The position numbers and the translations under genes were made by a program. Positions 245 to 41,920 of a stretch of DNA of 64,000 bases are shown here, piece by piece (position 1 is the stretch's first letter; every line of letters begins with the position of its first letter). Below the pieces are notes generated by a model. It searched no databases. It was not told the origin of the DNA and saw only the letters and a program-made list of their open reading frames with translations. The stretch is from an uncultured delta proteobacterium (GTDB lineage: Bacteria > Desulfobacterota > Desulfobacteria > Desulfobacterales > JAHEIW01). The stretch covers positions 128,001-192,000 of the forward strand of contig CAVPNL010000009.1 of assembly GCA_963706575.1 (NCBI GenBank), written 5' to 3'.

Positions 245-1951
245 ATGGAGGCAGGCCCAATGCCCGACTCAACGAAATCATTTAATCCGGATCGCATTAA
301 AAAGAATAAAACAGCGAAAAAAAAATCACAGGACCAGCCCGCCGGCGCGCGAAAAGAGCCGTCGGTCACCCTGCAGACCGCTTCCGGCATTCCACTTAAA
401 CCGTTGTACACACCGGAGGATATTTCCGACCTGGATTATAATCGACAGATAGGGCTTCCCGGCCAGGAACCGTTTGTGCGCGGTGTTTACTCCAGCATGT
501 ACCGGGGGCGCAGTTGGACGCTGCGGCAGCTGGCCGGATTCGGCCCGGCGGAGGAAACCAACAAGCGCTATAAATTTCTGCTTAAAGAAGGCGCAACCGG
601 TATTAACGGGGTTTTTGATTATCCGACCCTGAGGGGATTTGATTCCACCGATCCCATCGCCCGCGCAGATGCCGGGCGAGGCGGTGTTGCCATCGATACG
701 CTGGCGGACATGCAGACCTTATTTGATGGGATCCCCATCGAAACCACCAGCACATCTCTGGTGACCTGTCAGCCGATTTGCAACATTAGCGTGCAATCCA
801 TGTACTTTGCCCATGCCCAGATTAGCGGTGTTCCCCTGGATCGACTCAGTGGCACGAGTCAAAACGATTTTTTGATGGAAACCGCCATCACGGATGCCCC
901 GGAAGTTTTACCCCCCAGGTATTCTTTTAAGTTAAGCTGTGATGCCATCGAATATTGCACCCGTCATGTGCCGCGCTGGAATCCCGTTAGTTTTTCGGGC
1001 TACAATTACCGGGAGTCCGGCTGCACGGCCATCCAGGAAGTCGCCTTTGTTATTGCCAATGCCGTTGCCTGTTGCCAGGAACTCCTGCGGCGCGGGTTCG
1101 AGATTGATAGCTTTGCGCCCCGTTTAAGCTTTTTCCTTTCGGCCCATAACGATTTTTTTGAGGAAATTGCAAAATACCGGGCGGCCCGCAGAATATGGTG
1201 CCGGATAATGAAGGACCGTTTTGCGGCCAAAGACCCGCGCTCGTTGAAATTCAGATACCACGTTCAAACTGCCGGTGTCGCTTTGACGGCGCAACAACCG
1301 TTAAACAACATCGCCAGGGCGGCATATCATGGACTGGCAGCGGTATTAGGCGGAGCACAATCCTTACATATCGACGGATATGATGAGGCGCTGTGCACAC
1401 CGACCGAACTATCGGCACTTACCGCCTTGAGAACAAATCAGATTCTGCAATTGGAAACAGGCGTAACCCGTACCATCGATCCTTTAGGCGGATCCTATTT
1501 TGTAGAATCACTGACCAATCAACTGGAAGAAAAAATTTTGGAGCTGCTGGAAGAAATTGAACAAATGGGCGGTGTGGTGCGGGCTGTGGAAACCGGCTGG
1601 ATCCACCGGGAGATTTCAGATGCGGCCTTTGAATACCAACAGGCGATTGAATCCGGAAAATTGCCGGTTGTGGGATTAAACTGTCAACAGGTGGTGGAAG
1701 AAAAGCTGCCCATGGATCTTTTTGAAGTACCCGAAACACTGCGCATACAGGAAGAAAAGCTGGAAAAAATTAAGAAAGAGCGAAATCCGGATCAGGTTCG
1801 GCTTGGACTGGATGCGATTGAAGACTGTTGCCGTAAAGACGGAAATTTGATGGAAATCATCATAGAATCAGCTAAATCTTACGTAACCGTGGGGGAAATA
1901 TCCCGGACCCTTAAAGATTGTTATGGCACCTGGAATATGCCGCTTTTCTAG
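245..1951 (+). CDS. Adenosylcobalamin-dependent acyl-CoA mutase, large (substrate-binding) subunit, methylmalonyl-CoA mutase family
   Basis: Family motifs PGxxPFxRG, WTxRQxAGFG, QND, FAPRLSFF, FFEEIAKxRAARR, LTAQQP, GGxQSLH, DEAL, DPLGGSYFVE. Start may be ATG at 260. Confidence 0.93.
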   Translation: MEAGPMPDSTKSFNPDRIKKNKTAKKKSQDQPAGARKEPSVTLQTASGIPLKPLYTPEDISDLDYNRQIGLPGQEPFVRGVYSSMYRGRSWTLRQLAGFGPAEETNKRYKFLLKEGATGINGVFDYPTLRGFDSTDPIARADAGRGGVAIDTLADMQTLFDGIPIETTSTSLVTCQPICNISVQSMYFAHAQISGVPLDRLSGTSQNDFLMETAITDAPEVLPPRYSFKLSCDAIEYCTRHVPRWNPVSFSGYNYRESGCTAIQEVAFVIANAVACCQELLRRGFEIDSFAPRLSFFLSAHNDFFEEIAKYRAARRIWCRIMKDRFAAKDPRSLKFRYHVQTAGVALTAQQPLNNIARAAYHGLAAVLGGAQSLHIDGYDEALCTPTELSALTALRTNQILQLETGVTRTIDPLGGSYFVESLTNQLEEKILELLEEIEQMGGVVRAVETGWIHREISDAAFEYQQAIESGKLPVVGLNCQQVVEEKLPMDLFEVPETLRIQEEKLEKIKKERNPDQVRLGLDAIEDCCRKDGNLMEIIIESAKSYVTVGEISRTLKDCYGTWNMPLF

Positions 1952-2112: not shown

Positions 2113-2499
2113 ATGTCGAAGCGAATTCGAGTTCTGATTGCGCGTCTTGGAATGGATGCCCACTGGCGGGGCAGTATTATGGTGGCCCGTGCGTTACGCG
2201 ATGCCGGTATGGAAGTTATCTATTTGGGAAACCAGCTGCCGCAAGAAATTGTGGAGGCGGCCATCCAGGAGGATGCCGATGTCGTCGGAATCAGCACGCT
2301 TTCCGGAAATCATATGATTTTAGCCCCTGAAGTCGTCAAACAACTCAATGCAAAGGGGGCCAATGATAAAGTTGTGGTTCTCGGCGGCACGATACCCCCG
2401 GATGACATTCCTAAACTCAAAGATGCCGGCATTGGCGAGGTCTTCGGCCCCGGGACACCGATTGAAAAAATCATCGGCTTTATTACCGCTTCATCCTAG
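2113..2499 (+). CDS. Acyl-CoA mutase small subunit, cobalamin-binding domain
   Basis: DxHxxG motif (DAHWRG), GMEVIYLG, AAIQEDADVVGISxLSGxH, GGTIP, VFGPGT. Lies directly after the large subunit. Confidence 0.93.
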   Translation: MSKRIRVLIARLGMDAHWRGSIMVARALRDAGMEVIYLGNQLPQEIVEAAIQEDADVVGISTLSGNHMILAPEVVKQLNAKGANDKVVVLGGTIPPDDIPKLKDAGIGEVFGPGTPIEKIIGFITASS

Positions 2500-30854: not shown

Positions 30855-31712
30855 ATGAAAAGCGAAACCTTTACCCAGGCAGCCGTAGATTATGAGCGCA
30901 TCGAAAAAGCCATCCAATTTCTAGCGGACAACTTTCATTCGCAGCCCAATCTAAAGGAAATTGCCGGCAAGATTCACGTGAGCGAATATCATTTCCAGCG
31001 CCTTTTCAGTCGCTGGGTCGGTATCAGCCCCAAGCGGTTTCTGCAATTTTTAACCAAAGAATATGCCAAGACCCTGCTGGAAAAATCGATCAATCTATTA
31101 GATGTTACCTACGAATCGGGCCTGACCAGCCCCGGGCGTCTGCATGATTTATTCGTATCCTGTGAAGCCGTGACTCCGGGGGAATACAAAGCCAAAGGCG
31201 AAGGTCTTGAAATTGTATACGGCTATCATGCCACCCCCTTCGGCGAATGTATGCTGGCCAAAACCGAGCGGGGCATCTGCGGTTTAGATTTTGTTCAAAA
31301 AAATGACCAGCAGCCCGTTTTTGCGAGTTTGGAAGATAGATGGCAAAAGGCAACATTAATTCAAGATCCAGATGTCACGCGACCTTTTGTCAAACGGATT
31401 TTCAATCCATCACAGGGGCAAAAATCAACGCCGCTGCATCTGGTTTTAAGCGGCACCAATTTTCAAATAAAGGTATGGGAGGCCCTGATCAAAATTCCCA
31501 TGGGTGCGGTGGTTACTTATGAGGACGTTGCGGCCCACATCGGGATGCCCAAAGCCTCCCGTGCCGTCGGCAATGCGGTTGGCAGCAATCCGGTCTCATT
31601 TGTTATTCCCTGTCACCGGGTCATCAAAAAAACCGCCGAATTCGGAAATTACGGAGGTGGGGTCGCGCGCAAGCTGGCAATACTTGGTTGGGAAGCGGTT
31701 CAGATGAATTGA
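30855..31712 (+). CDS. ogt: AraC-HTH + methylated-DNA--protein-cysteine methyltransferase (Ada/Ogt type, no N-terminal Zn domain)
   Basis: HFQRLFSRWVGISPKRF, GTNFQIKVW, RAVGNA, IPCHRV. Confidence 0.92.
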   Translation: MKSETFTQAAVDYERIEKAIQFLADNFHSQPNLKEIAGKIHVSEYHFQRLFSRWVGISPKRFLQFLTKEYAKTLLEKSINLLDVTYESGLTSPGRLHDLFVSCEAVTPGEYKAKGEGLEIVYGYHATPFGECMLAKTERGICGLDFVQKNDQQPVFASLEDRWQKATLIQDPDVTRPFVKRIFNPSQGQKSTPLHLVLSGTNFQIKVWEALIKIPMGAVVTYEDVAAHIGMPKASRAVGNAVGSNPVSFVIPCHRVIKKTAEFGNYGGGVARKLAILGWEAVQMN

Positions 31713-32253
31713 CCAATGACCTATTTACATACCGGGAACCCAAGTCCCATCCGGTGTCCCCGGAAGACATCAATGCGCAGATACTGAAGACCGCTATGAG
31801 TCGGTCAATCAAATACCGAGAGTTTTAATCAAATCCAACCGGGTCTATATAACTACATACTTTTTATCGTGAGAACCCTTCAATACAGGTGCTTTTAAGA
31901 CTCCGTGTCTTGCATGTGTTCATTTTGTGATTAGGATAAGAGGTGAAGGTGTTCTTATTGAGATAATGCCGGGCGGCCCGGCCGATTTCAAATTTCAGAT
32001 AGCCCACCGCCTTTCAAATATGGAATATCCTTCCACCGAAACGGGGCGCTGGTAGTCACTAGGCATTAACCATTGCGGGGAACGTCACCGGCCCTCAGGA
32101 TGAGACATCCCCCCACTTGTGTGATCATTAAACCCAGCCAAATATTTTGCCCCAAAGCCGAAGAAGCAGGTCTTTGATTTTTTGATGAGAACAAAGGCGC
32201 TGTGTGATTCTGGGTGCACACAGTGCCGATTGATTGGCTGTTTACGGGGTTCC

Positions 32254-33495
32254 ATGATAAATACTCCTATCATAGAATTTAAAAATGTTTCCAAGCGATT
32301 TGATAATCGGACGATCCTGGATCGAATCAACCTGCAGATTTATGAAGGTGATGTCACCACCATCATCGGTAAAAGCGGCGAAGGCAAAAGCGTTCTGCTC
32401 AAGCACATCACCGGCCTGCTGAGACCCGACGAAGGCAGCGTTTTATTCCGGGGCCAACCGATCGAAAAAATGAGCCGCAAAGAATGGAATAGCTACCTCG
32501 CGCAGATCAGCTATATGTTTCAGAATAATGCCCTTTTTGACTCCAAGACGGTTTATCAAAATGTAGCCATGCCTCTGAGAAAATTTAGCCAACTCAGCAA
32601 ATCACAAGTTCGAGAAAAGATAATGGCGCGCCTGGAACAAACCGAGCTGACGGATGTGGCTCAAAAATATCCGTCCGAGCTCTCCGGCGGAATGCAAAAG
32701 CGAGCGGCTTTGGCCCGGGCGCTGGTTACAGATCCGAAAATCGTCCTGTTTGACGAATTGACCACCGGACAGGATCCCATTCGCCGAAATGCCATCCTGG
32801 GAATGATTGCTGAATATAAAATGAAATTCGGCTTTACGGCCGTTTTGATCAGTCATGACATTCCGGATGTGTTTTTTATCTCCAACCGCATTCTGGCGCT
32901 TTACGATAAAAAAATTGTTTTTCAGGGGACACCTGAAGCATTCGAAGAATTTGATCATCCCTTTTACGATGAAATCATCACCAGTCTCGAAGATTTGCAG
33001 CATGAGCTGACCGGCCTGCATTCCAGGCGCCAGTTCAAAGTACGCTATCAAACCGATCTGGCCCGCAAAAATGGACACCGCCAATTTGCGGTTGTCATTT
33101 TCGCCCTTGAAAATTTGGATGGCATTATTGAAGAACTGGGTCACACAGCGGCTCAGAATGGAATCCGAACCATGGGGGATTACATCAATAAACACTTCGG
33201 CACGGTCGGAGGATTTTCAATGCGGCGCAGAATCGACCAATTCAGTACGGTACTGCCGTTTTCGGACCTGGATGAAGCCCGGTGCATTTTAGAAGATTTT
33301 ATCACAGATTTTCGGAAAAACGGGCTGATCAGCATTGAGAATGCCGCCAGAGAGGTCAATCCTGCGGTGCGCTGCTTTGAGTTCTCAATCAGTGCCGGGT
33401 TGGCCCGCGGAAATCCAAATGTCGAGTTGGATTCCATTATGGCGTTTGCCGACTTTAATCGGGAACCGATTGCTCAGTTTCAGTGCAATATTTAG
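32254..33495 (+). CDS. MlaF/Ttg2A-like ABC ATPase fused to a degenerate GGDEF-like domain
   Basis: GKSGEGKS, FQNNALFDS, LSGGMQKR, VLFDE, SHD; C-terminal LTGL.SRR..., LGH, RRIDQF, SISAGLA. Confidence 0.85.
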   Translation: MINTPIIEFKNVSKRFDNRTILDRINLQIYEGDVTTIIGKSGEGKSVLLKHITGLLRPDEGSVLFRGQPIEKMSRKEWNSYLAQISYMFQNNALFDSKTVYQNVAMPLRKFSQLSKSQVREKIMARLEQTELTDVAQKYPSELSGGMQKRAALARALVTDPKIVLFDELTTGQDPIRRNAILGMIAEYKMKFGFTAVLISHDIPDVFFISNRILALYDKKIVFQGTPEAFEEFDHPFYDEIITSLEDLQHELTGLHSRRQFKVRYQTDLARKNGHRQFAVVIFALENLDGIIEELGHTAAQNGIRTMGDYINKHFGTVGGFSMRRRIDQFSTVLPFSDLDEARCILEDFITDFRKNGLISIENAAREVNPAVRCFEFSISAGLARGNPNVELDSIMAFADFNREPIAQFQCNI

Positions 33496-34301
33496 GTACT
33501 AAATTCAGCAGCCTTTCTATAACCTGCCTCAAGCGCTTCAGTTATGATGGCCTTAAACGCTTTTTTTTCCAGGGTAAACGTAATTTCAGTGGAAATGCCT
33601 CCCGGCGTGCTGGCTTCGCTGATTAAATTATAAGGAGACACTTGCCGGGTGTTCCACAGCTCCATTGAACCGTTAATCGTATGATATGCAATCTTTGTTG
33701 ATGTCTTCCGATCAATACCCAATCTCACGGCTGTATCAATGATCGCTTGAAAAAACAGGTGCGTTGTCACCGGACTGCTGAGAGCGGTAACCGCGTTGAT
33801 CTTATCTTCCTGCAAAATAACATATTCTCCCAGACAGGAAAAAAGTTCGATTACATCATTTTTTTGTGTTTTGCTGACGTAGGGATTAAAAGCCAGCGCC
33901 GCAATGCCTTTGCCGATCAGGCTGGGAGGATTGGGCAGGGCTCTTATAACCGGTAGATGCTCTCCTAAAACCGTGTATGTTTTCATGGGGATGCCGGCCG
34001 CCAGGCTGATGATGGCTTTGTCTTTTGGAAATTCCTGTTCTCTTAATTCATTTAAAACCGGAACCACAACCTGGGGCAGAACATTGAAAAATATGAAATC
34101 GGCAGCGCCCAGTGCCTGTTGATTGCTATCCGCTGTTTGAACAGCAAATTTTTTTTGGAGCGATTCCAGTTTTTGGAGATCAGGGTCACTGACAACCAGC
34201 TGGCTCCCGGTCGTTTTTCCGGATCGGGTCAGATTCTCAAGAATGATGCTGGTGATGTGCCCTCCGCCGATAAAAGCAATGGTGCGCTGCTTTAATGCCA
34301 T
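33492..34301 (-). CDS. proC: Pyrroline-5-carboxylate reductase family protein (divergent)
   Basis: IAFIGGG, IISLAAGI, RALPN, VTALS, TPGG. Confidence 0.85.
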   Translation of the reverse strand: MALKQRTIAFIGGGHITSIILENLTRSGKTTGSQLVVSDPDLQKLESLQKKFAVQTADSNQQALGAADFIFFNVLPQVVVPVLNELREQEFPKDKAIISLAAGIPMKTYTVLGEHLPVIRALPNPPSLIGKGIAALAFNPYVSKTQKNDVIELFSCLGEYVILQEDKINAVTALSSPVTTHLFFQAIIDTAVRLGIDRKTSTKIAYHTINGSMELWNTRQVSPYNLISEASTPGGISTEITFTLEKKAFKAIITEALEAGYRKAAEFST

Positions 34302-36094
34302 TTATCCTTCTCCTTTTGCCCGTTTGTCCCTATGTTTGACTCCAGCATTTTTTTAAATCGTCCCTCCAATCTGGCGCACGGATAAAAACCCAATTCCTTC
34401 AAATTGCCGGTAACATCGACAGGCAGCGCTTGGCTTTCGACTTTTTGATTCAGGATACCGCCAATTAAAACGGGGAGCCTTATTTTTTGCCGGGCCAATG
34501 CTTCTCTCAATTGTTTTGCATATTCAAGTGCCATCCCGTTATGGGTGCTGACTAATATCGCCTCCGCGTTTTGGGTATTTGCTTCTGAAACGATCTCATC
34601 CGGATTTACCTCAGCGCCCAGATATATCATTTCAGCACCGGCTTCAGAAAGAAGCTGGCTGATAACCGTTACGGCATGCTCATGCACATCGGTTGATGCG
34701 ATCAGCAATCGGCGCCCGCCTAAAAGGGTTCTCATTTTCGAGGTGACAAACATCTGCCGATACTCATTGAAATATTTATTGGACATTTCGAAAACATCCG
34801 TCGGTTCGATAGGGACTCGCCCCCTGATAAAATCTTCCTGGACCTTACCGGCCCCGAACATTTCTTCGAAAACGGCCGGTCCGAGATTTTTGAGCACAAA
34901 CAGCATTTGAACAGGGTCGGTAATATCGACACCGGCTTCCTTCAATCCGTCTAAGGCGTTATCAAATACAGATTTTCCGGCAGCTAGGATGGTGTCGCAG
35001 AATTGATAGGCTTCGCGGAAGTCAAAATGGTAAAAGAGTTTTCGAGCCGCTTTTTCGATTTGGCGACCGAATTTTTGGGCTTCGGCGATTTCTTCAGCCG
35101 AAGGGATTCTTAATGCTTCGGTAACCGGCAGCGGCAGCACGGCATGGCCGGTGGGACATTCAAGCTGGGCCATAATATCCCAGAGCAGATATTCTGCCAC
35201 CACCCCCTGGTTCAGGGTGAAGTCCGGGGAAAAAGAAAGGGTATCACCGTAAAACATGGATCCCACACAATCGGGTGCATGAATTTTGTGCAGCGCAAAC
35301 ACCCAACCGGCTCTTTTTATGGGATCGGTCGTCAAGCCGCCAATACAATGCGCCAGTTTGGCTCCCAGAAGGTTTTCGACAATATAGTTTTCCAGATAGG
35401 CCCATCCGGCCACGGTGGCACAATCGTAAAAAAGGGCGCCGAAGCCGTCTTCGAGGTAGGAGTGCACCATTGTGCCCTTTTTTCTCAAGGCTCCCATAAT
35501 TGCGATGGCCTTCACTGTTTCGGCAGCAGTTACGGCTTTATCCTTCCACAGCGGAACTTCATGCGCAAAAAATTGGGATAGATTTCCAATGGTGGTCACT
35601 CCGGCTTTCAGCGCCAGGATGGTGTTGTCGGTCGATGCGGGAAATCCGATCATAAAATCGCCCATGTGAGGCTGGATGGGCGCCGTTTGTCCGACCTGTT
35701 TCCAATCTTTTATGGAATCCAACATGGGGCCGGTTTCGGCCGGTATGTTTTTTCGGTGTGCTTTGGGTAATCCCATGCGTCGATCCAGGCAAATTCCGGC
35801 GCGGTCCACCATGAACCCATTCTCTTCAGCGGTATTATCAAGCAGCGTCAACGCCGCCACCGTCGAATTCCATGAATTCATTCCAATATGGGCATGAAAC
35901 ATGATGGTGTTTTCCTGCATGCACCTTTTTTTATATTCCAATTCAGATGCGACCCCCATTTTATTCATGAAAGCGGTGCGGCCGATTCGAATATCTCTGG
36001 CAATCGCCTGCCCCGCGTTTGTAATTGCCCGGCTTGAAGGCAAATCTGTCCTTAAAATCTCCTGAACGGTTTTATGGAATTTCGAAAATTTCAT
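34292..36094 (-). CDS. Uncharacterised cobalamin-dependent enzyme (putative TIM barrel + C-terminal B12-binding domain)
   Basis: C-terminal STDVHEH, IYLG, ILVSTHNG, VLIGG. PVTEALRIPSAEE resembles mutase EA..P motifs. Overlaps the proC start by 10 nt. Confidence 0.8.
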   Translation of the reverse strand: MKFSKFHKTVQEILRTDLPSSRAITNAGQAIARDIRIGRTAFMNKMGVASELEYKKRCMQENTIMFHAHIGMNSWNSTVAALTLLDNTAEENGFMVDRAGICLDRRMGLPKAHRKNIPAETGPMLDSIKDWKQVGQTAPIQPHMGDFMIGFPASTDNTILALKAGVTTIGNLSQFFAHEVPLWKDKAVTAAETVKAIAIMGALRKKGTMVHSYLEDGFGALFYDCATVAGWAYLENYIVENLLGAKLAHCIGGLTTDPIKRAGWVFALHKIHAPDCVGSMFYGDTLSFSPDFTLNQGVVAEYLLWDIMAQLECPTGHAVLPLPVTEALRIPSAEEIAEAQKFGRQIEKAARKLFYHFDFREAYQFCDTILAAGKSVFDNALDGLKEAGVDITDPVQMLFVLKNLGPAVFEEMFGAGKVQEDFIRGRVPIEPTDVFEMSNKYFNEYRQMFVTSKMRTLLGGRRLLIASTDVHEHAVTVISQLLSEAGAEMIYLGAEVNPDEIVSEANTQNAEAILVSTHNGMALEYAKQLREALARQKIRLPVLIGGILNQKVESQALPVDVTGNLKELGFYPCARLEGRFKKMLESNIGTNGQKEKDKWH

Positions 36095-36339
36095 TGGATT
36101 GTTTTCTTATCCTTAAACAGGATTTGATCTAAAGTTTTTCTTTAGATAAGACTGCCGGGAACAGATGGTTTTGTAAAGAAAAAATTTGATGTATGGCGGC
36201 CGAAGGTAGGTATATCCTGTCTAAAATAAAACAAAGCAAGATATACTTATTTCCCTTTTCGCGCCTTTTTGCTACATGTTTATCTGTAGGTACAGTTCGT
36301 TGTAAAAGCTGAATTCTGCTAGACGATTTACGATCAGGT

Positions 36340-37596
36340 GTGGGTAACATCAGAAAAATGAATCATTTACACCAAAGCATCAAATGGCAGCAGGAGGCAA
36401 ACTCAATATCTGACCGGCTCTGGGATGTTGTCATCGTCGGTGCCGGTCCGGCCGGTGGGATTGCGGCCGCCCACCTTGCAGCAAGCCATCACCGGGTTTT
36501 ACTATTGGATCGTAAAAAGTTTCCGCGCGAAAAAGTATGCGGCGACGGCCTGCTGCCGGATGCTTTGCGCTGTCTGGACGCCATTGGTGTCGGGAAAATC
36601 GTTCGCGCCGCCGGTCACAAAATCAGCGCCAGCGTTTTTGTTAGCCCTTCCCTAAACGAAGTCGAAATACCCGGTGAGTATCTGACCATAAAACGCAATC
36701 TTTTGGATATGATCGTTGCTCAAAAGGCCGTTGATATCGGTGCTGTTTTTGCGTGTGGTGAAGTGAAACAGCTGGTGGTTGAACCTGATGGCCGGGTGTC
36801 TTTCACGATCCGGGGAAGTGAAAAGAGAATTCAAGCGCGAATCGGGATTCTGGCAACCGGTGTGAATATCCGGCTATTTCGCAAACTGAACTGGGCCGCC
36901 AGAAAAAAGACCAGTGGCGTTGCTCTGCGATGTTATGTACGCTCTTCACTGGCTCTTGACCGATTGGTCATTTCATTTTTCAGTCATAACAGACGAACGG
37001 TCCCTGGCTATGGGTGGATTTTTCCCATGCGAGATCATGAATACAACCTCGGTTGCGGCATTTTCTCTCCGGATCGAGTTGCCAACTCCACCATTAATTT
37101 TAAGAAAAAATTTAAAGAATTTATCGATTCTTACCCCCTGGCACGGGATCTGATGCAGCAGAGCGATAGAACAACAGCCTTGCGAGCAGCGACGTTGCGG
37201 TATAATTTTGAAGGCGCCTACCCGTTCGTAAACGGCCCCATTGTCGCCGTGGGGGAAACCATTGGAACGACATTGCCGTTTATCGGCGAAGGCATCGGCA
37301 AAGCCATGGAATCCGGCCAACTGGCGGCTGAAGCCATCAGCAGCGCATTGAACTCAGACGATTTGAGCAAACTGTCACGATATCATCATCAAATAGAATT
37401 CGAATTTAAGACTCACTATCAAGGGTATCGGCAGGCTGAAAAATGGCTGGCAAGGCCCCAGGTAAATGATTTCATCATAAACCGATTTGGAAATAGCAGA
37501 TATGCAAAAAAAATCCTGACCGATGTTATTGCTGAAACCAAAAATCCGAGAGATATTTTTTCTTTAAAAGGTATTTTTAAATCACTCTGGAACTAA
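36340..37596 (+). CDS. Geranylgeranyl reductase family FAD-dependent oxidoreductase
   Basis: DVVIVGAGPAG, FPREKVCGDGL, PGYGWIFP, GEGIGKAMESG. Start may be ATG at 36358. Confidence 0.9.
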   Translation: MGNIRKMNHLHQSIKWQQEANSISDRLWDVVIVGAGPAGGIAAAHLAASHHRVLLLDRKKFPREKVCGDGLLPDALRCLDAIGVGKIVRAAGHKISASVFVSPSLNEVEIPGEYLTIKRNLLDMIVAQKAVDIGAVFACGEVKQLVVEPDGRVSFTIRGSEKRIQARIGILATGVNIRLFRKLNWAARKKTSGVALRCYVRSSLALDRLVISFFSHNRRTVPGYGWIFPMRDHEYNLGCGIFSPDRVANSTINFKKKFKEFIDSYPLARDLMQQSDRTTALRAATLRYNFEGAYPFVNGPIVAVGETIGTTLPFIGEGIGKAMESGQLAAEAISSALNSDDLSKLSRYHHQIEFEFKTHYQGYRQAEKWLARPQVNDFIINRFGNSRYAKKILTDVIAETKNPRDIFSLKGIFKSLWN

Positions 37597-37740
37597 ATGA
37601 CCGGGTTGAGTTCATGTTTCTTAAACACCAGGTGTGGTCCTGAATAACGGATTTGCCGGTCCCTGATTTCCGGAAGCAAAGAATATAATCGAATTCGAAT
37701 CGAACGGTGAACGCCGTTGATTCGAGATGGTTTCTTTTGC

Positions 37741-37769
37741 TTGACATTTTACGTGAAAATGCTTATAAT
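37741..37769 (+). promoter_or_regulatory. Perfect-consensus sigma70 promoter with an overlapping inverted repeat
   Basis: TTGACA-17 nt-TATAAT; CATTTT-acgtg-AAAATG at 37745-37761. Confidence 0.8.
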
Positions 37770-37993
37770 ATATTGAAAAATTTAGAAATAATTTAGTTAT
37801 TAACCATTGCACAGAAACGAAACTCTTCCGTTTGAAATTTTGCCTTGATATATTCAGCTTCGAAGGTTATCCATCCTGGAGCTTGACTCCTGCTCTTAAA
37901 TGAAAGTAAACTTTTCACAGACGGTTTCATTTTCGCCTGACAATTTATTTGTGCGCATTTAACCCATGGGTCCACCAAGATTATAGAAAAATT

Positions 37994-40900
37994 ATGAGAC
38001 TCTGCCCCAAATGTGACCAGCCGGTTGCCGAAGACATTACCCTGTGTCCGGCCTGCGGCAACGAAATCGGTGAAGGCCGCAAATACATCGACGATTACCG
38101 GATCGTTGATATTCTGCACGAAGGCCATTCGAGTTTCCTTTGCCGGGCTATTCGGGAACGAACCGGCGAGATGGTCATGATCCGCCTGTTTACTCCCGAA
38201 TCGGGGGTCGACGAAGGAGTGGCGGATAGGCTAAAGCAGGAGCTGGAACGCCTCAAAAAGCTGCCTGATAAAGGCTTCGTCCGCCATTATGCCATAAGAC
38301 AATCAAGCGACGGATTTTGGTACCGGATCAGCGAGTGGATCGACACCGAAAGCTGGGGGTCTTTGCTGACATCCGGCCGCCTGAACAATCGCCAGATAGT
38401 CTTTGATCTGTTTTACCAGATGGCTTCCATCCTTACCGTGCTTCATAATGAAGGTTACTTTATTCCCCACCTCATCTTAAACGACATTATGCTGGTAAGG
38501 GCTGAAAGTGGAAGGCTCGAAGTCAAAATCGATTATAAGCTTTCACGGTTTTTTGATCCCAAGCTCGACCGCCCCGGACCCATGCTAAAAAAATTGCTGA
38601 ACGTCCACCCGGATATCGTCAACCATCGCCCCCTTGATTTCAGAAGCGATATCTGGTCGCTGGGTAAAATTTTTGTAGAGCTGCTTTCAGCCGATCTGGA
38701 AACCACTGATTATCTGGCCAAAGTCGATGAGCTTCATTTGCCGGAAGCGGCTAAAGTTCTGCTGAAAGTCATGCTGGCCGATGATCCGGATATACGGCCC
38801 CGATCCACGGCCGAAGTGGCAGTGTCATTGGCCCGCATTAAAGAAAGGCCCGTTGAAGCAGACGAGGAACCAACAGCGGAGCAACCGCCGCCCCCGGCTG
38901 CAGCCGCGCGCAGGTTAACGATAAAAGGGTTGCAGAATCGCATTAGTGTGCTGGCCATTTTAATTATCATTTTATCTGTTGCCGGTGTTGTGGCCTGGTA
39001 TCAGCTCAGCCAGCGGAAAGCAGGATTTGAAAACCGCATGGAAGATTATGCCAATCAATACTCCCCATCGATTGCTTTTATACTGGTCGAGTACTGGTTG
39101 GATCTCGGAAATGAAAAAATGTATCGTAATCTGGCGGAGGGCACTGGCTTTTTGGTAGACAGCGACGGCTATATGCTGACCAGCCGGCACGTTGTTTGCC
39201 CCTGGCTGGAGGACTCCAACCTGTTGGCCACCGTTTATCATTTCAGAGAAATGGAGAAGATACCGGAATTAAAATACCGGATATTTTTATGGTTTGAGGG
39301 TGCCCGGGCCTTTAACCGCGTCTCCCGCCTGCTTGAAAGTCCGGATTTAACCGATGTGTATTTTATTGAAAATGCCTTCAGCAACGAATCCGAACCCCGG
39401 CTGTCGATTGCCGGTGTGCCCAAATCGCCGCTTCAAACCCGTCAGATAATTACATCGCCGCTTAAAGATGATTTTGCCGTTATAAAAATTGACCGCGTGC
39501 CTGAGGGGCTGGAGCCACTGCCGTTGGACTTAAAACTGGATTCCAAAAACATTCCCAAGCTCTCGCGACTTATTGCTATCGGGTTTCCCCTGGGCAGCCG
39601 AACCCAGGACGATATCGTTAACGCCAGTGTAACCGGGGGCAATGTGCGCCGATCTTTTGAAAATGTGATTCAGGTCGATACGTCTCTTTATGGCGGCAAC
39701 AGCGGTGGACCTATTATCGATGCGCGAGGCAAAGTGATCGGTATCGCCGCCGGTGTCGCCATGGATGTTGCCCAGGGGCTGATGCCGACCGCAACCCCCC
39801 GCTGGGACCTGGGCATGGTATTGCCCATAACGAATGCTGCCAGGTTTCTTGAGGAATTAAAGGCGGGTCAGTCCAAATGGAATGGCGAACTGGATTTTTC
39901 AATTGAGAAAACGCTGAAAAAGATTAAATTAAAAGCCGCCGAGGGCCTGTGGGCCGAGGCACAGGCTTTGGCCGATGAAGAACTCAAGGGCAACCCGCAA
40001 CCGGAAATGATTATGGCGGCCGGCATGATGCATTATTGTACCGGGGATAACAAAGGCGCCAGGAAGCTGTTTTCCGAAACCCTTTCCATGGATCCTGAAA
40101 ATCCGGAAGCCCGGCTGATGCTCTTTTTAACCGACTGGCTTGTCGGGAACGGCGAGATAAGTTCTTACCGTGATGCCTTGCTGACTGTAGACTGGCGTTC
40201 TTCGGCAGAATTTCAAGGACATTTGGTTCGGGTTCTGGAGGGCTTGATCGATGAGGTTTCGGCTTTAGACAGCTGGCATACCGAGGCTGAAAAAAGCTGG
40301 CTGAATTATGCGGTCAGCCTTATCCGGATCGAGGGTCAGGATTTGGAGGGGGCCGAAAAGCTGCTGAGAGAAGCGGTGCTTACCGCTGATTCGGATGCAT
40401 GGGAGTTTTTCGTGGCGAGTGCCAAACTGGAGCAATTGCAGAAACGCCGTCGAAAAACGTTGAAGACCGAGGCCCAGTGGAAGGATTACAACAAGGACAT
40501 CGAGGCGTTTAATAATAGCGTTAAGGATAAACTAGAGCTGGATGTAAAGCTTAAAGCCGAGTTATCCCCATTGATGGCCACATTTATTGATGAGACAGTG
40601 GCGATCAATGAAAAACAGGAGGTGCTTAAAAAAATAGCGGAGATATATCCCAAAAACCGCAAAATCTATGTGGCCCTTGCCTTTTACAGTGCTGCTGACG
40701 AGGACTGGACCCAGTCACTGGAATACATCCGCACTTTTTTAGATGGCGGCGGCCGCCAAAACGCAGATCGAATGAGCTTAGGGATTCTGGAAGCCGGGAT
40801 ATTAAATCAGCAGGGTCTAGCGGATGAAACCCGCGCCAGTCTCGAGGCCTTTGTCGGTCGCACCATGGATCCCTGGTATCTGACGATCAGCGACTATCTA

Positions 40901-41128
40901 TTGGGCAAACAGACTGAGAGATCACTGCTGGAACAGGCCGGAGAAAGCCCGGAGAACCTCCTGACTGCGCATAGCGCCGTGGGGTTATGGGCTGAAGGCA
41001 GGGGAGACAACCAAAAAGCGATTAAACACTACCGTGAAGCGCTGGGCTCTTTTCTGGATACATGGCTCGAATACGATTTTTCCAAAGAGCGCCTCAAGCG
41101 GCTGAAACAGCCACAGCCTTCCGGCTAG
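37994..41128 (+). CDS. Zinc ribbon + degenerate Ser/Thr kinase-like domain + TM + trypsin-like serine protease + TPR-like region
   Basis: CPKC..CPACG; YRIVDIL, RSDIWSLG; TM; GTGFLV, TSRHV, DFAVIKI, GNSGGP; helical repeats. Confidence 0.85.
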   Translation: MRLCPKCDQPVAEDITLCPACGNEIGEGRKYIDDYRIVDILHEGHSSFLCRAIRERTGEMVMIRLFTPESGVDEGVADRLKQELERLKKLPDKGFVRHYAIRQSSDGFWYRISEWIDTESWGSLLTSGRLNNRQIVFDLFYQMASILTVLHNEGYFIPHLILNDIMLVRAESGRLEVKIDYKLSRFFDPKLDRPGPMLKKLLNVHPDIVNHRPLDFRSDIWSLGKIFVELLSADLETTDYLAKVDELHLPEAAKVLLKVMLADDPDIRPRSTAEVAVSLARIKERPVEADEEPTAEQPPPPAAAARRLTIKGLQNRISVLAILIIILSVAGVVAWYQLSQRKAGFENRMEDYANQYSPSIAFILVEYWLDLGNEKMYRNLAEGTGFLVDSDGYMLTSRHVVCPWLEDSNLLATVYHFREMEKIPELKYRIFLWFEGARAFNRVSRLLESPDLTDVYFIENAFSNESEPRLSIAGVPKSPLQTRQIITSPLKDDFAVIKIDRVPEGLEPLPLDLKLDSKNIPKLSRLIAIGFPLGSRTQDDIVNASVTGGNVRRSFENVIQVDTSLYGGNSGGPIIDARGKVIGIAAGVAMDVAQGLMPTATPRWDLGMVLPITNAARFLEELKAGQSKWNGELDFSIEKTLKKIKLKAAEGLWAEAQALADEELKGNPQPEMIMAAGMMHYCTGDNKGARKLFSETLSMDPENPEARLMLFLTDWLVGNGEISSYRDALLTVDWRSSAEFQGHLVRVLEGLIDEVSALDSWHTEAEKSWLNYAVSLIRIEGQDLEGAEKLLREAVLTADSDAWEFFVASAKLEQLQKRRRKTLKTEAQWKDYNKDIEAFNNSVKDKLELDVKLKAELSPLMATFIDETVAINEKQEVLKKIAEIYPKNRKIYVALAFYSAADEDWTQSLEYIRTFLDGGGRQNADRMSLGILEAGILNQQGLADETRASLEAFVGRTMDPWYLTISDYLLGKQTERSLLEQAGESPENLLTAHSAVGLWAEGRGDNQKAIKHYREALGSFLDTWLEYDFSKERLKRLKQPQPSG

Positions 41129-41242: not shown

Positions 41243-41920
41243 CTATTTTATAATTCCGTAGTCTCGTGCCAGATCCTCATTATAACGTGCTTTCCTGCCC
41301 GGACACCTTTCTCGCTGGCATAGCTGGCAGTTAAAAAAAGAAACCTCGGTCTGAAAATAAATTCCGGATACGGATTTTGTGGGTATCATCAAAAAGGATT
41401 TGTTCAGGCGAACGCCGATGGACGCCTCAACCTCCGGCAGGAGTTGAAATAACTGGCGTTGGGCCTCAACAGGCCAGTCTTGCAACGATCCAGGACTCAT
41501 AAACGAAATTTTTTTAAAGGCAAATTTGCTGCAAAGGTGATCATGAAGTTGTCTGCGGACAGCCGTCAATGCAATATTGCCGATAACATCCAGATAATAC
41601 GCTTCCAGCAGATCGCTCGTCTTGCCGGTTGCCTGTTCCAGTGCGGCACCGATCGAAACCACGTACGGGAAAATGCGTTCCACTTCATTTAGATTTTTGC
41701 GCAACACCTTACTTTCCAGACGCAAACCATTAACGATAACCGCATCTTGCAGCTTTTCATCGATATAACACACCTTAAATGCAGCTTTGGGCTCAATAAG
41801 GGTTTTCGCCTTGTCGATGAGACGCTGCGCCAATTGAGAATCCCCTTGCCGATCCAGGCGCAGGGACTTTCTGACCTCCTGGAGGTCGATTTGCGTTGTT
41901 AAATTTTGTAAAATTTCCAT
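41243..41920 (-). CDS. Stand-alone B12-dependent methionine synthase activation-domain-like protein
   Basis: VSIG..LE, SPGSLQDW, IGVRLN.SFLMIPTKSVSG, C-terminal CxxCxxxxC. Confidence 0.82.
   Translation of the reverse strand: MEILQNLTTQIDLQEVRKSLRLDRQGDSQLAQRLIDKAKTLIEPKAAFKVCYIDEKLQDAVIVNGLRLESKVLRKNLNEVERIFPYVVSIGAALEQATGKTSDLLEAYYLDVIGNIALTAVRRQLHDHLCSKFAFKKISFMSPGSLQDWPVEAQRQLFQLLPEVEASIGVRLNKSFLMIPTKSVSGIYFQTEVSFFNCQLCQRERCPGRKARYNEDLARDYGIIK

Follow-up and report, generated by a model that had tools for sequence, protein, structure and literature searches.

To our knowledge, the enzymes that depend on adenosylcobalamin (AdoCbl) form a small set that has hardly grown for decades. Glutamate mutase, GlmE2-GlmS2 with GlmL (PDB 1cb7, 1i9c and 6h9e), is divided into two subunits, and the arginines R66, R100 and R149 of GlmE bind the two carboxylates of the substrate. 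In ornithine 4,5-aminomutase (OraSE; 3kp1), OraE joins a barrel and a B12 domain in one chain, and the 2-methyleneglutarate mutase of Eubacterium barkeri, for which we know of no solved structure, is a protein of ~614 residues with a C-terminal B12 domain. A radical enzyme with a different cofactor, the glycyl radical trans-4-hydroxy-L-proline dehydratase HypD, is encoded near a Δ1-pyrroline-5-carboxylate (P5C) reductase (P5CR), and the paper that describes this states that the dehydration of hydroxyproline is without precedent in B12 enzymology (PMC7077986). Here we describe two overlapping genes in a stretch of 64,000 nucleotides (nt), referred to below as the window, from an uncultured member of the Desulfobacterales (assembly GCA_963706575.1, contig CAVPNL010000009.1, positions 128,001 to 192,000 of the forward strand). 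They encode a 600-residue (600-aa) protein with a C-terminal B12-binding domain and a 269-aa paralogue of the P5CR ProC. The 600-aa protein represents a new family inside the AdoCbl mutase/eliminase superfamily, and its gene and that of its dedicated imine-reductase paralogue form a genuine, conserved module.

Architecture of the gene pair and of the B12 protein

The gene for the 600-aa protein lies on the minus strand at positions 34292..36094 and was characterized from the list of open reading frames (ORFs), an AlphaFold2 model, fold matches and family searches. On the same strand, its N-terminal part encodes the substrate domain (aa 17-441; 34772..36046), predicted to be an eight-stranded TIM barrel with a helical layer, and its C-terminal part the Rossmann-type B12-binding domain (aa 458-590; 34325..34723). 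The only Pfam match in the protein is to PF02310 (B12-binding; aa 468-554, 51.5 bits), and residues 1-460 are not covered by any Pfam or NCBIfam model. NCBIfam yielded weak, sub-threshold matches for the B12 domain, the best of them to methylaspartate mutase S. Searches of the PDB with phmmer and with the profile of a 36-sequence family alignment (A1, which was also the input for the AlphaFold2 model and for the conservation counts given below) matched the B12 domain and not the N-terminal domain. The catalytic domain of 14 distant members of the family was equally unmatched in NCBIfam.

The B12-binding domain is of the DxHxxG...SxL...GG Rossmann type and carries the base-off/His-on motif as D469-x-H471-x-x-A474, S516-T-H-N-G520 and G545-G546. 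Of the 36 sequences of A1, 35 retain D469 and 35 retain H471, and the window protein has an alanine (A474) at the position of the motif that is glycine in 24 of the 36. The original prediction, made from the letters of the window, had quoted the motifs STDVHEH (found at aa 467), SxHNG (as STHNG at aa 516), IGG (aa 544) and PVTEALRIPSAEE (aa 323), together with others in the ProC paralogue and in a methylmalonyl-CoA mutase (MCM) at position 245, and had seen no CxxxCxxC; all of these were recovered as quoted, and CxxxCxxC is indeed absent from the 600-aa protein.

The AlphaFold2 model, built on A1, has a pLDDT of 92.9 and a pTM of 0.92. The top ranks of the Foldseek search with this model are occupied by MCM, glutamate mutase E, ornithine 4,5-aminomutase and lysine 5,6-aminomutase, with E values from 1e-11 to 4e-9 for MCM and GlmE. 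Since Foldseek ranks the AdoCbl mutases first, the fold is a single-chain equivalent of GlmE plus GlmS: as modelled, the protein is one chain with a GlmE-like TIM barrel, which caps the cofactor, and a GlmS-like B12 domain. A barrel of the AdoCbl mutase superfamily at the N-terminus had been anticipated, and the model agrees with it. The most conserved residues of the barrel (G71, R114, D146, G170/Q174, D216/D224, G252, T285 and T325/E326) are all found after the C-terminal ends of the eight predicted strands, which is the usual active-site face of a TIM barrel. Among the charged residues, D216 and D224 are present in all 36 sequences of A1, R114 in 35, E235 in 34 and D146 in 33; E326 is kept in 35 of the 36. 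R114 and R329, the latter present in 28 sequences, are the sole conserved arginines.

The ProC-like gene (33492..34301, minus strand) follows directly. It shares with the B12 gene an overlap of 10 nt, ATGGCATTAA (34292..34301), as had been read from the sequence, because the upstream TAA falls inside the start of the downstream ORF. The B12 ORF ends with W-H-TAA, its stop being at 34294..34292, and the ATG of the ProC-like ORF is at 34301..34299. The minus-strand junction between both ORFs reads ...GATAAATGGCATTAAAGCAG, and a longer stretch of it GATAAATGGCATTAAAG. A Shine-Dalgarno-like box, AAGGAG (34310..34315, minus strand), is located within the 3' end of the B12 gene, 8 nt 5' of the ProC-like ATG, and we infer that it serves the translational coupling of the two genes.

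Relation to described B12 enzymes

The profile-profile comparison (hhalign) of A1 with an alignment of six GlmE sequences from genomes (A2) is colinear over 381 columns, with an alignment probability of 16.6% and an E value of 0.0015. In this alignment, the family sequence T-E-A-L-R-I-P lies on H-E-A-V-G-I-P of GlmE, with E326 on E330 and P331 on P335, and at that probability E326 is the putative equivalent of the conserved glutamate that contacts the adenosyl ribose. The adenosyl group is contacted by Glu330 in glutamate mutase, Glu370 in MCM and Glu287 in ethanolamine ammonia-lyase, according to a paper whose title names Glu338 of ornithine 4,5-aminomutase as a facilitator of C-Co bond breakage (PMC4413051). 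The original prediction had pointed to an echo of an "EA..P" motif in this segment, and it is a real shared motif, since the MCM-family ORF of the window (245..1951) carries DEALCTP, within DEALCTPTE at aa 380. This ORF, on the plus strand, encodes the 568-aa large subunit of a split MCM-type enzyme (PF01642, 601 bits), and a separate small B12-binding frame lies downstream of it (2119..2394, plus strand).

Besides these two aligned residues, the 600-aa protein has in common with glutamate mutase the His-on DxHxxG-type motif, and one member of its family has a GlmL segment attached: P0136, an 857-aa family representative, extends into the first ~140 residues of GlmL (NF040745, 147 bits), which reflects a genuine fusion or else a gene call that ran two genes together on a truncated contig. 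Glutamate mutase differs in having two subunits instead of one chain, and the 600-aa protein is paired with a ProC paralogue, whereas a methylaspartase was not seen among the 325 neighbour proteins from related loci that were scanned with Pfam and, for some of them, NCBIfam. PF06368 (GlmE) does not match the 600-aa protein at E values up to 0.01, and the A1 profile retrieved B12 domains but no GlmE chain from the PDB at E values up to 10. The arginines R66, R100 and R149, invariant in A2, have no counterpart in the family, which mostly has N, H or Q at claw-aligned position 69 and mostly H at position 143. Glutamate mutase proper was ruled out as an assignment, the arginine claw being missing.

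Like OraE, the 600-aa protein contains barrel and B12 domain in one chain, but it differs from OraSE and from lysine 5,6-aminomutase (KamDE; 1xrs and 8t0v) in having no match to PF09043. Its ESM Atlas features lean to Lys-AminoMut_A clusters (0.83-0.86), which is to be taken as a lead only. The lysine that forms the Schiff base in the aminomutases is located in the Rossmann domain. No lysine is found among the invariant or 90%-conserved columns of A1, so the lysine for a pyridoxal phosphate (PLP) Schiff base appears to be absent from the family. This alignment makes a PLP Schiff base like that of the aminomutases unlikely, and PLP aminomutase was discarded as an assignment. PF01642 (MM_CoA_mutase) does not match the 600-aa protein either. 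The 2-methyleneglutarate mutase of E. barkeri is presumably alike in length and domain order; none of the 325 neighbour proteins was recognized as belonging to nicotinate fermentation.

A predicted imine-reductase partner

The 269-aa protein was assigned from Pfam, TIGR00112, motifs and a tree, and is predicted to be an imine reductase. It is a member of the P5CR superfamily, with a Rossmann domain and a P5CR dimerization domain that contains the PGG loop (P5CR_dimer, PF14748, 66.9 bits; F420_oxidored, PF03807, 54.3 bits), and it scores 178.3 bits on the proC equivalog TIGR00112, under the cut-off of 196.75. Its motifs are GGGHIT at 12, ALPNPP at 121, SSPVTT at 175 and TPGGIS at 232, the last one aligning with SPGGT of the housekeeping ProCs. 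These deviations are common to partner proteins from other loci, in whose alignment the PGG carboxylate-loop motif is kept. The genome of the window (G000) has a housekeeping proC elsewhere, on contig C14, with 296.5 bits on TIGR00112. In each of the five partner-bearing genomes that were examined (G000, G001, G003, G004 and G005), the partner is a supplementary copy, and the last four of them likewise have a separate housekeeping proC above the cut-off.

The pairing was quantified in 77 related loci taken from species-representative genomes, which are the basis of all neighbour counts, using stop-to-stop segments and a profile from 12 partner proteins. Of the 77 loci, 52 contain a ProC-family gene, and in 44 this gene is on the same strand at a distance of no more than 500 nt (23 downstream, 21 upstream). 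If the count is restricted to the 56 loci whose flanks both extend for 1 kb or more, the gene is found within 500 nt in 30 loci and within 3.5 kb in 36. Given its recurrence in 44 of 77 loci, the pairing of the two ORFs is more than chance.

Two types of partner were distinguished. Type I, found in the window, other Desulfobacterales, Chloroflexota and Synergistota, has a GxGHIT dinucleotide loop, LPNPPS, S-SPx and a TPGG(I/V)S carboxylate loop. Type II, from Proteobacteria, Bacteroidota and two Desulfobacteraceae loci, has a GxGH dinucleotide loop, LP(I/L)xC, GAFYAW and a PGGIS carboxylate loop. The corresponding motifs of the housekeeping copies are GTGNMG, (M/L)PN, G(S/C)GPA and SPGGT. In a quick maximum-likelihood search with 51 sequences and an arbitrary root, a type II clade of 13 rows (SH-aLRT 100) is separated from a type I clade of 30 rows (99), and six of the seven housekeeping copies group with the partner from a Clostridia locus, L072 (94), the seventh standing apart. 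As type I, type II and the canonical ProC of L072 come out separately in this tree, at least three P5CR lineages adjoin the B12 enzyme. L072 combines the B12 enzyme with that canonical ProC (237.5 bits) and a racemase-family gene. In a Synergistaceae locus, L043, ProC is missing; an OCD/mu-crystallin-family gene is found with a proline-racemase-family gene beside it, as well as a DapB-like gene. The second-best model for the OCD/mu-crystallin gene is a Δ1-pyrroline-2-carboxylate/Δ1-piperideine-2-carboxylate (Pyr2C/Pip2C) reductase, at 259.9 bits, below the cut-off of that model.

Spread of the family and its gene neighbours

A database clustered at 90% identity contains 907 matches to the 600-aa protein at E values up to 1e-3 (among 7998 candidates scored); the best 120 of the 907 are mostly 559-622 aa long and 64-94% identical. 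Clustering at 50% gives 615 representatives, 364 of them at E values up to 1e-10 and 143 up to 1e-30, and full-length members reach down to 23% identity. The 77 loci come from Desulfobacterales, Chloroflexota/Anaerolineae, Aminicenantes, Synergistota, Alpha- and Gammaproteobacteria, Bacteroidota, Clostridia and Actinomycetota, the nearest relatives being Desulfobacterales with 93-94% identity. The database names of the members do not go beyond "methylmalonyl-CoA mutase cobalamin-binding subunit", "cobalamin-dependent protein" and "hypothetical protein", and neither Pfam nor NCBIfam 20.0 has a model for the catalytic domain. A literature search that covered few subscription journals found no paper on the 600-aa family or on a B12-dependent hydroxyproline enzyme. 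In the genome of the window there is one full-length member, together with 16 other B12-domain matches.

Several further genes are found near the enzyme. Proline-racemase-family genes occur in eight of the 77 loci, in four of them within 3.5 kb, and the proteins of L043, L056 and L072 are below every equivalog cut-off. L060 has a 4-hydroxyproline-epimerase-like gene (427 bits, cut-off 442) with DHDPS-family and aldehyde-dehydrogenase genes, L076 a PutP-like symporter and L052 a PhyH-family dioxygenase. Ldh_2-family genes are found in three loci (L011, L035 and L058), and DapB-like and DHDPS-family genes in two loci each. The Ldh_2 neighbours were tried as imine reductases and rejected, their best models being ureidoglycolate or sulfolactate dehydrogenase, below cut-offs. 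PRK06148-type genes, with an APH kinase and a class-III aminotransferase, are located inside or next to the operon of three loci, which belong to two phyla (L020:9702-12071, L005:23-1120 and L006:12728-13747). In the proteobacterial operons there are ABC transporters of the Dpp/Opp type and GntR/FCD regulators, accompanied in some loci by M20 amidohydrolases. AIG2-like proteins form a tight orthologous group (e.g., L004:7450-7902, L051:9778-10233, L076:4801-5355 and L025:10554-12206) and are mutually close, with phmmer E values of 1e-27 to 1e-51 against the AIG2-like part of the L025 protein; the latter, from an Aminicenantes locus, joins its AIG2-like part to an M19 dipeptidase. The AIG2-like proteins, of ~150 aa, are not represented by any NCBIfam model. 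A gene for a ~665-aa ASKHA (hydantoinase-A-like) protein is found in 10 of the 77 loci, in nine within 500 nt, and adjoins the enzyme in Synergistota loci, which also contain the ProC partner, GntR and short-chain acyl-CoA fermentation genes. When the Synergistota ASKHA protein is compared with the ORF at the GlmL position of a GlmE locus, the DxGGTTTD phosphate motif alone is common (BLASTP E 0.005); a reactivase role for the ASKHA protein is a guess.

Two further sets of genes were recorded. A conserved protein of ~380 aa, with no Pfam or NCBIfam match, adjoins the B12 enzyme in both Clostridia loci (L072:9812-10969 and L071:6756-7880). An operon elsewhere in the genome of the window (G000:C12:226000-242000; L097:6023-12928, minus strand) encodes an ABC transporter together with members of the proline-racemase (334.5 bits) and Amidohydro_3 (368.5 bits) families, and an M20 peptidase is encoded close by. 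Racemase and Amidohydro_3 genes also occur together close to the B12 enzyme of L072, and in L024 an Amidohydro_3 gene is found there without the racemase; the operon on C12 could be a dispersed part of the same pathway.

In the window, the pair is flanked by a convergent ABC-ATPase/GGDEF-like gene and by a divergent geranylgeranyl-reductase-family gene, neither of which recurs in the other loci scanned. In the 437-aa product of the former (32182..33495, plus strand), a GGDEF-like domain (36 bits) comes after an ABC-transporter ATPase domain, and the 3' end of the gene shares 4 nt with that of the ProC-like gene. At 37949..41128 (plus strand) there is a 1059-aa protein with protein-kinase and trypsin-like peptidase domains and TPR repeats, and at 41243..41920 (minus strand) a stand-alone 225-aa protein whose sole match is the activation domain of B12-dependent methionine synthase (PF02965, 34.3 bits). 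A scan of 31500..38500 with Rfam at E values up to 1 found no family and no cobalamin riboswitch, and the promoter-like sites, 4 against a mean of 4.8 in shuffled sequences, are not in excess.

Discussion

In its general form, the proposal that this module couples an AdoCbl radical enzyme with an imine reductase is probably correct. A narrower version, to which we would give an even chance, is that a GlmE-like single chain with predicted AdoCbl radical chemistry supplies the overlapping ProC paralogue with its substrate, likely a cyclic imino acid, for reduction with NAD(P)H. Substrate binding would induce Co-C homolysis, and the 5'-deoxyadenosyl radical would then take a hydrogen from the substrate. 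A 1,2-shift, or the elimination of a hydroxyl or amino group, would leave a carbonyl or imine that closes to, or already is, a Δ1-pyrroline (or piperideine) carboxylate, and the ProC paralogue would trap this cyclic imine as proline or a proline analogue.

The favoured class of substrate, though a tentative and still doubtful choice, is that of hydroxylated imino acids, such as a hydroxyproline isomer. It is favoured because racemase/epimerase-family, PutP-like and canonical hydroxyproline genes are found near the enzyme in some loci, because in one Clostridia locus a canonical ProC and a racemase-family gene accompany the enzyme, and because HypD and P5CR show the same gene logic. There, as in the window, a radical-enzyme gene stands beside a ProC-family reductase gene, a proximity that the original prediction had cited and that the source confirms (PMC7077986); the 600-aa protein is, however, unrelated to HypD in protein and cofactor. 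It is a conjecture, and a rather unlikely one, that the enzyme is an oxygen-tolerant counterpart of HypD that relies on B12, works with an imine reductase of its own and would be the first AdoCbl-dependent enzyme to dehydrate hydroxyproline-type imino acids. As regards the pathway that had been predicted for the pair, the pairing with ProC-family genes, the EA..P motif and a ProC that is not the only housekeeping copy of its genome all held up. A CoA-linked substrate, which had been considered, found no support, as no CoA-ligase family was found among the 325 neighbour proteins and MM_CoA_mutase gave no match, and the AIG2/GGCT-like partner was neither foreseen nor explained.

Several observations weigh against the proposal as a whole. 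A ~150-aa AIG2/GGCT-like gene is present in 22 of the 77 loci, in 18 of them within 500 nt, a 1199-aa full oxoprolinase/hydantoinase adjoins the enzyme in L057 and L061, and HyuA/HyuB are found in L075; these genes point to a gamma-glutamyl or 5-oxoproline chemistry that lies outside it. The PRK06148-type genes point towards amino-alcohol substrates such as hydroxylysine. No ProC-family gene was found in the covered stretch of 18 of the 56 loci with both flanks, mostly Gammaproteobacteria (L057-L066), and no transporter, racemase or AIG2-like gene was found adjoining the pair in the window. Since the hhalign alignment is weak, residue equivalences to GlmE beyond E-A-x-x-x-P are unsure. Finally, the imine may not be plain P5C, because the conversion of P5C to proline followed by reoxidation would be wasteful in aerobes.

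Two other kinds of radical chemistry have to be weighed, each of which we regard as improbable. The enzyme could be an eliminase like ethanolamine ammonia-lyase, acting with AdoCbl on an amino-alcohol amino acid (such as 5-hydroxylysine or 5-hydroxypipecolate). The amino-oxo acid formed would then cyclise, and the resulting piperideine or methyl-pyrroline carboxylate would be reduced by the ProC paralogue. A basic amino acid would suit R114 and the acidic D146, D216, D224 and E235 of the barrel, and the PRK06148-type genes of L005, L006 and L020 resemble the hydroxylysine kinase/phospholyase (amino-alcohol) pair, although kinase/aminotransferase genes of this kind occur in only three of the 77 loci. 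GGACT-type enzymes free lysine from epsilon-(gamma-glutamyl)lysine, a role in which the AIG2-like partner of the 22 loci would fit such an eliminase. The Ldh_2-family genes and the DapB-like and DHDPS-family genes could be added on the same side, but the models that the Ldh_2 proteins match best, below cut-offs, are those of other dehydrogenases; the reduction of Δ1-piperideine-6-carboxylate to pipecolate, or the formation of 5-methylproline, offers no obvious catabolic gain, and the racemase-family and PutP-like neighbours suit imino acids better. The enzyme could instead be a carbon-skeleton mutase like glutamate mutase, working by glycyl-type fragmentation and recombination on a substrate without a distal carboxylate (for example lysine, ornithine or pipecolate) to give a methyl-branched isomer, with the ProC paralogue acting later on a cyclic imine. 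The match of E326/P331 to GlmE E330/P335 and the GlmL segment fused in one member agree with such a mutase, as does the replacement of the claw arginines at positions 69 and 143 with the invariant-type D146 inserted nearby, as a changed distal substrate group would require. The tight coupling to an imine reductase is, however, not directly explained by it, no methylaspartase-like or other branched-product gene was seen among the 325 neighbour proteins, and we know of no branched imino-acid pathway of this kind, which also counts against it.

A role in gamma-glutamyl or 5-oxoproline metabolism, in which the AIG2/GGCT-like partner makes a 5-oxoproline-type lactam or frees an amine and the B12 enzyme converts either, is considerably less probable. 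It would account for the frequency and proximity of the closely alike AIG2-like proteins, for their fusion to an M19 dipeptidase in L025, for the Dpp/Opp-type transporters of the alpha- and gammaproteobacterial operons, some with M20 amidohydrolases, and for the oxoprolinase/hydantoinase genes of L057, L061 and L075. Yet the AIG2-like gene was not seen in 55 of the 77 loci, the genome of the window (91.8% complete) has the pair without any AIG2_2 match, and there would be no plausible radical route from 5-oxoproline to a reducible imine, a ring-contracted product being a strained beta-lactam. Very improbable, finally, is a methyl-corrinoid protein fused to a methyltransferase-type barrel (MtaB/MttB/MetH-like), which would carry methyl groups and not radicals. 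The B12 domain does also match MetH and corrinoid proteins (profile A1, E values of 1e-12 to 1e-7, and weak NCBIfam matches), MttB-family genes lie within 8 kb in four of the 77 loci, and the genome has the 16 other B12-domain matches mentioned above. A methyl-carrier role is nevertheless unlikely because of the closest barrels, the conserved glutamate aligned with the Ado-ribose contact, the absence of a match to the cap domain (B12-binding_2, PF02607) and the GlmL segment in one member; the structural match to 1bmt is confined to residues 433-595 of the model, and the best NCBIfam match of the B12 domain is, as stated, methylaspartate mutase S. The original prediction had named a methylcobalamin carrier among the alternatives that would undo it, and the kept ribose Glu, the missing cap domain and the GlmL segment speak against that alternative.

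The pairing of an AdoCbl radical enzyme with an imine reductase, which we take as the probable function of the module, offers a ready assay in the consumption of NAD(P)H. As the loci include some from carriers that can be cultivated (Sulfitobacter sp., Rhizobium setariae, Maritalea porphyrae and Sinanaerobacter chloroacetimidivorans), it is open to direct test. The reaction, once found, would correct the widespread misannotation of the 600-aa family and add a B12-dependent step to the turnover of amino and imino acids in sediments, seawater and guts. If it proves to be the dehydration of hydroxyproline, it would found a new class of B12 reaction across Desulfobacterales, Chloroflexota, Synergistota, marine Proteobacteria and Bacteroidota.

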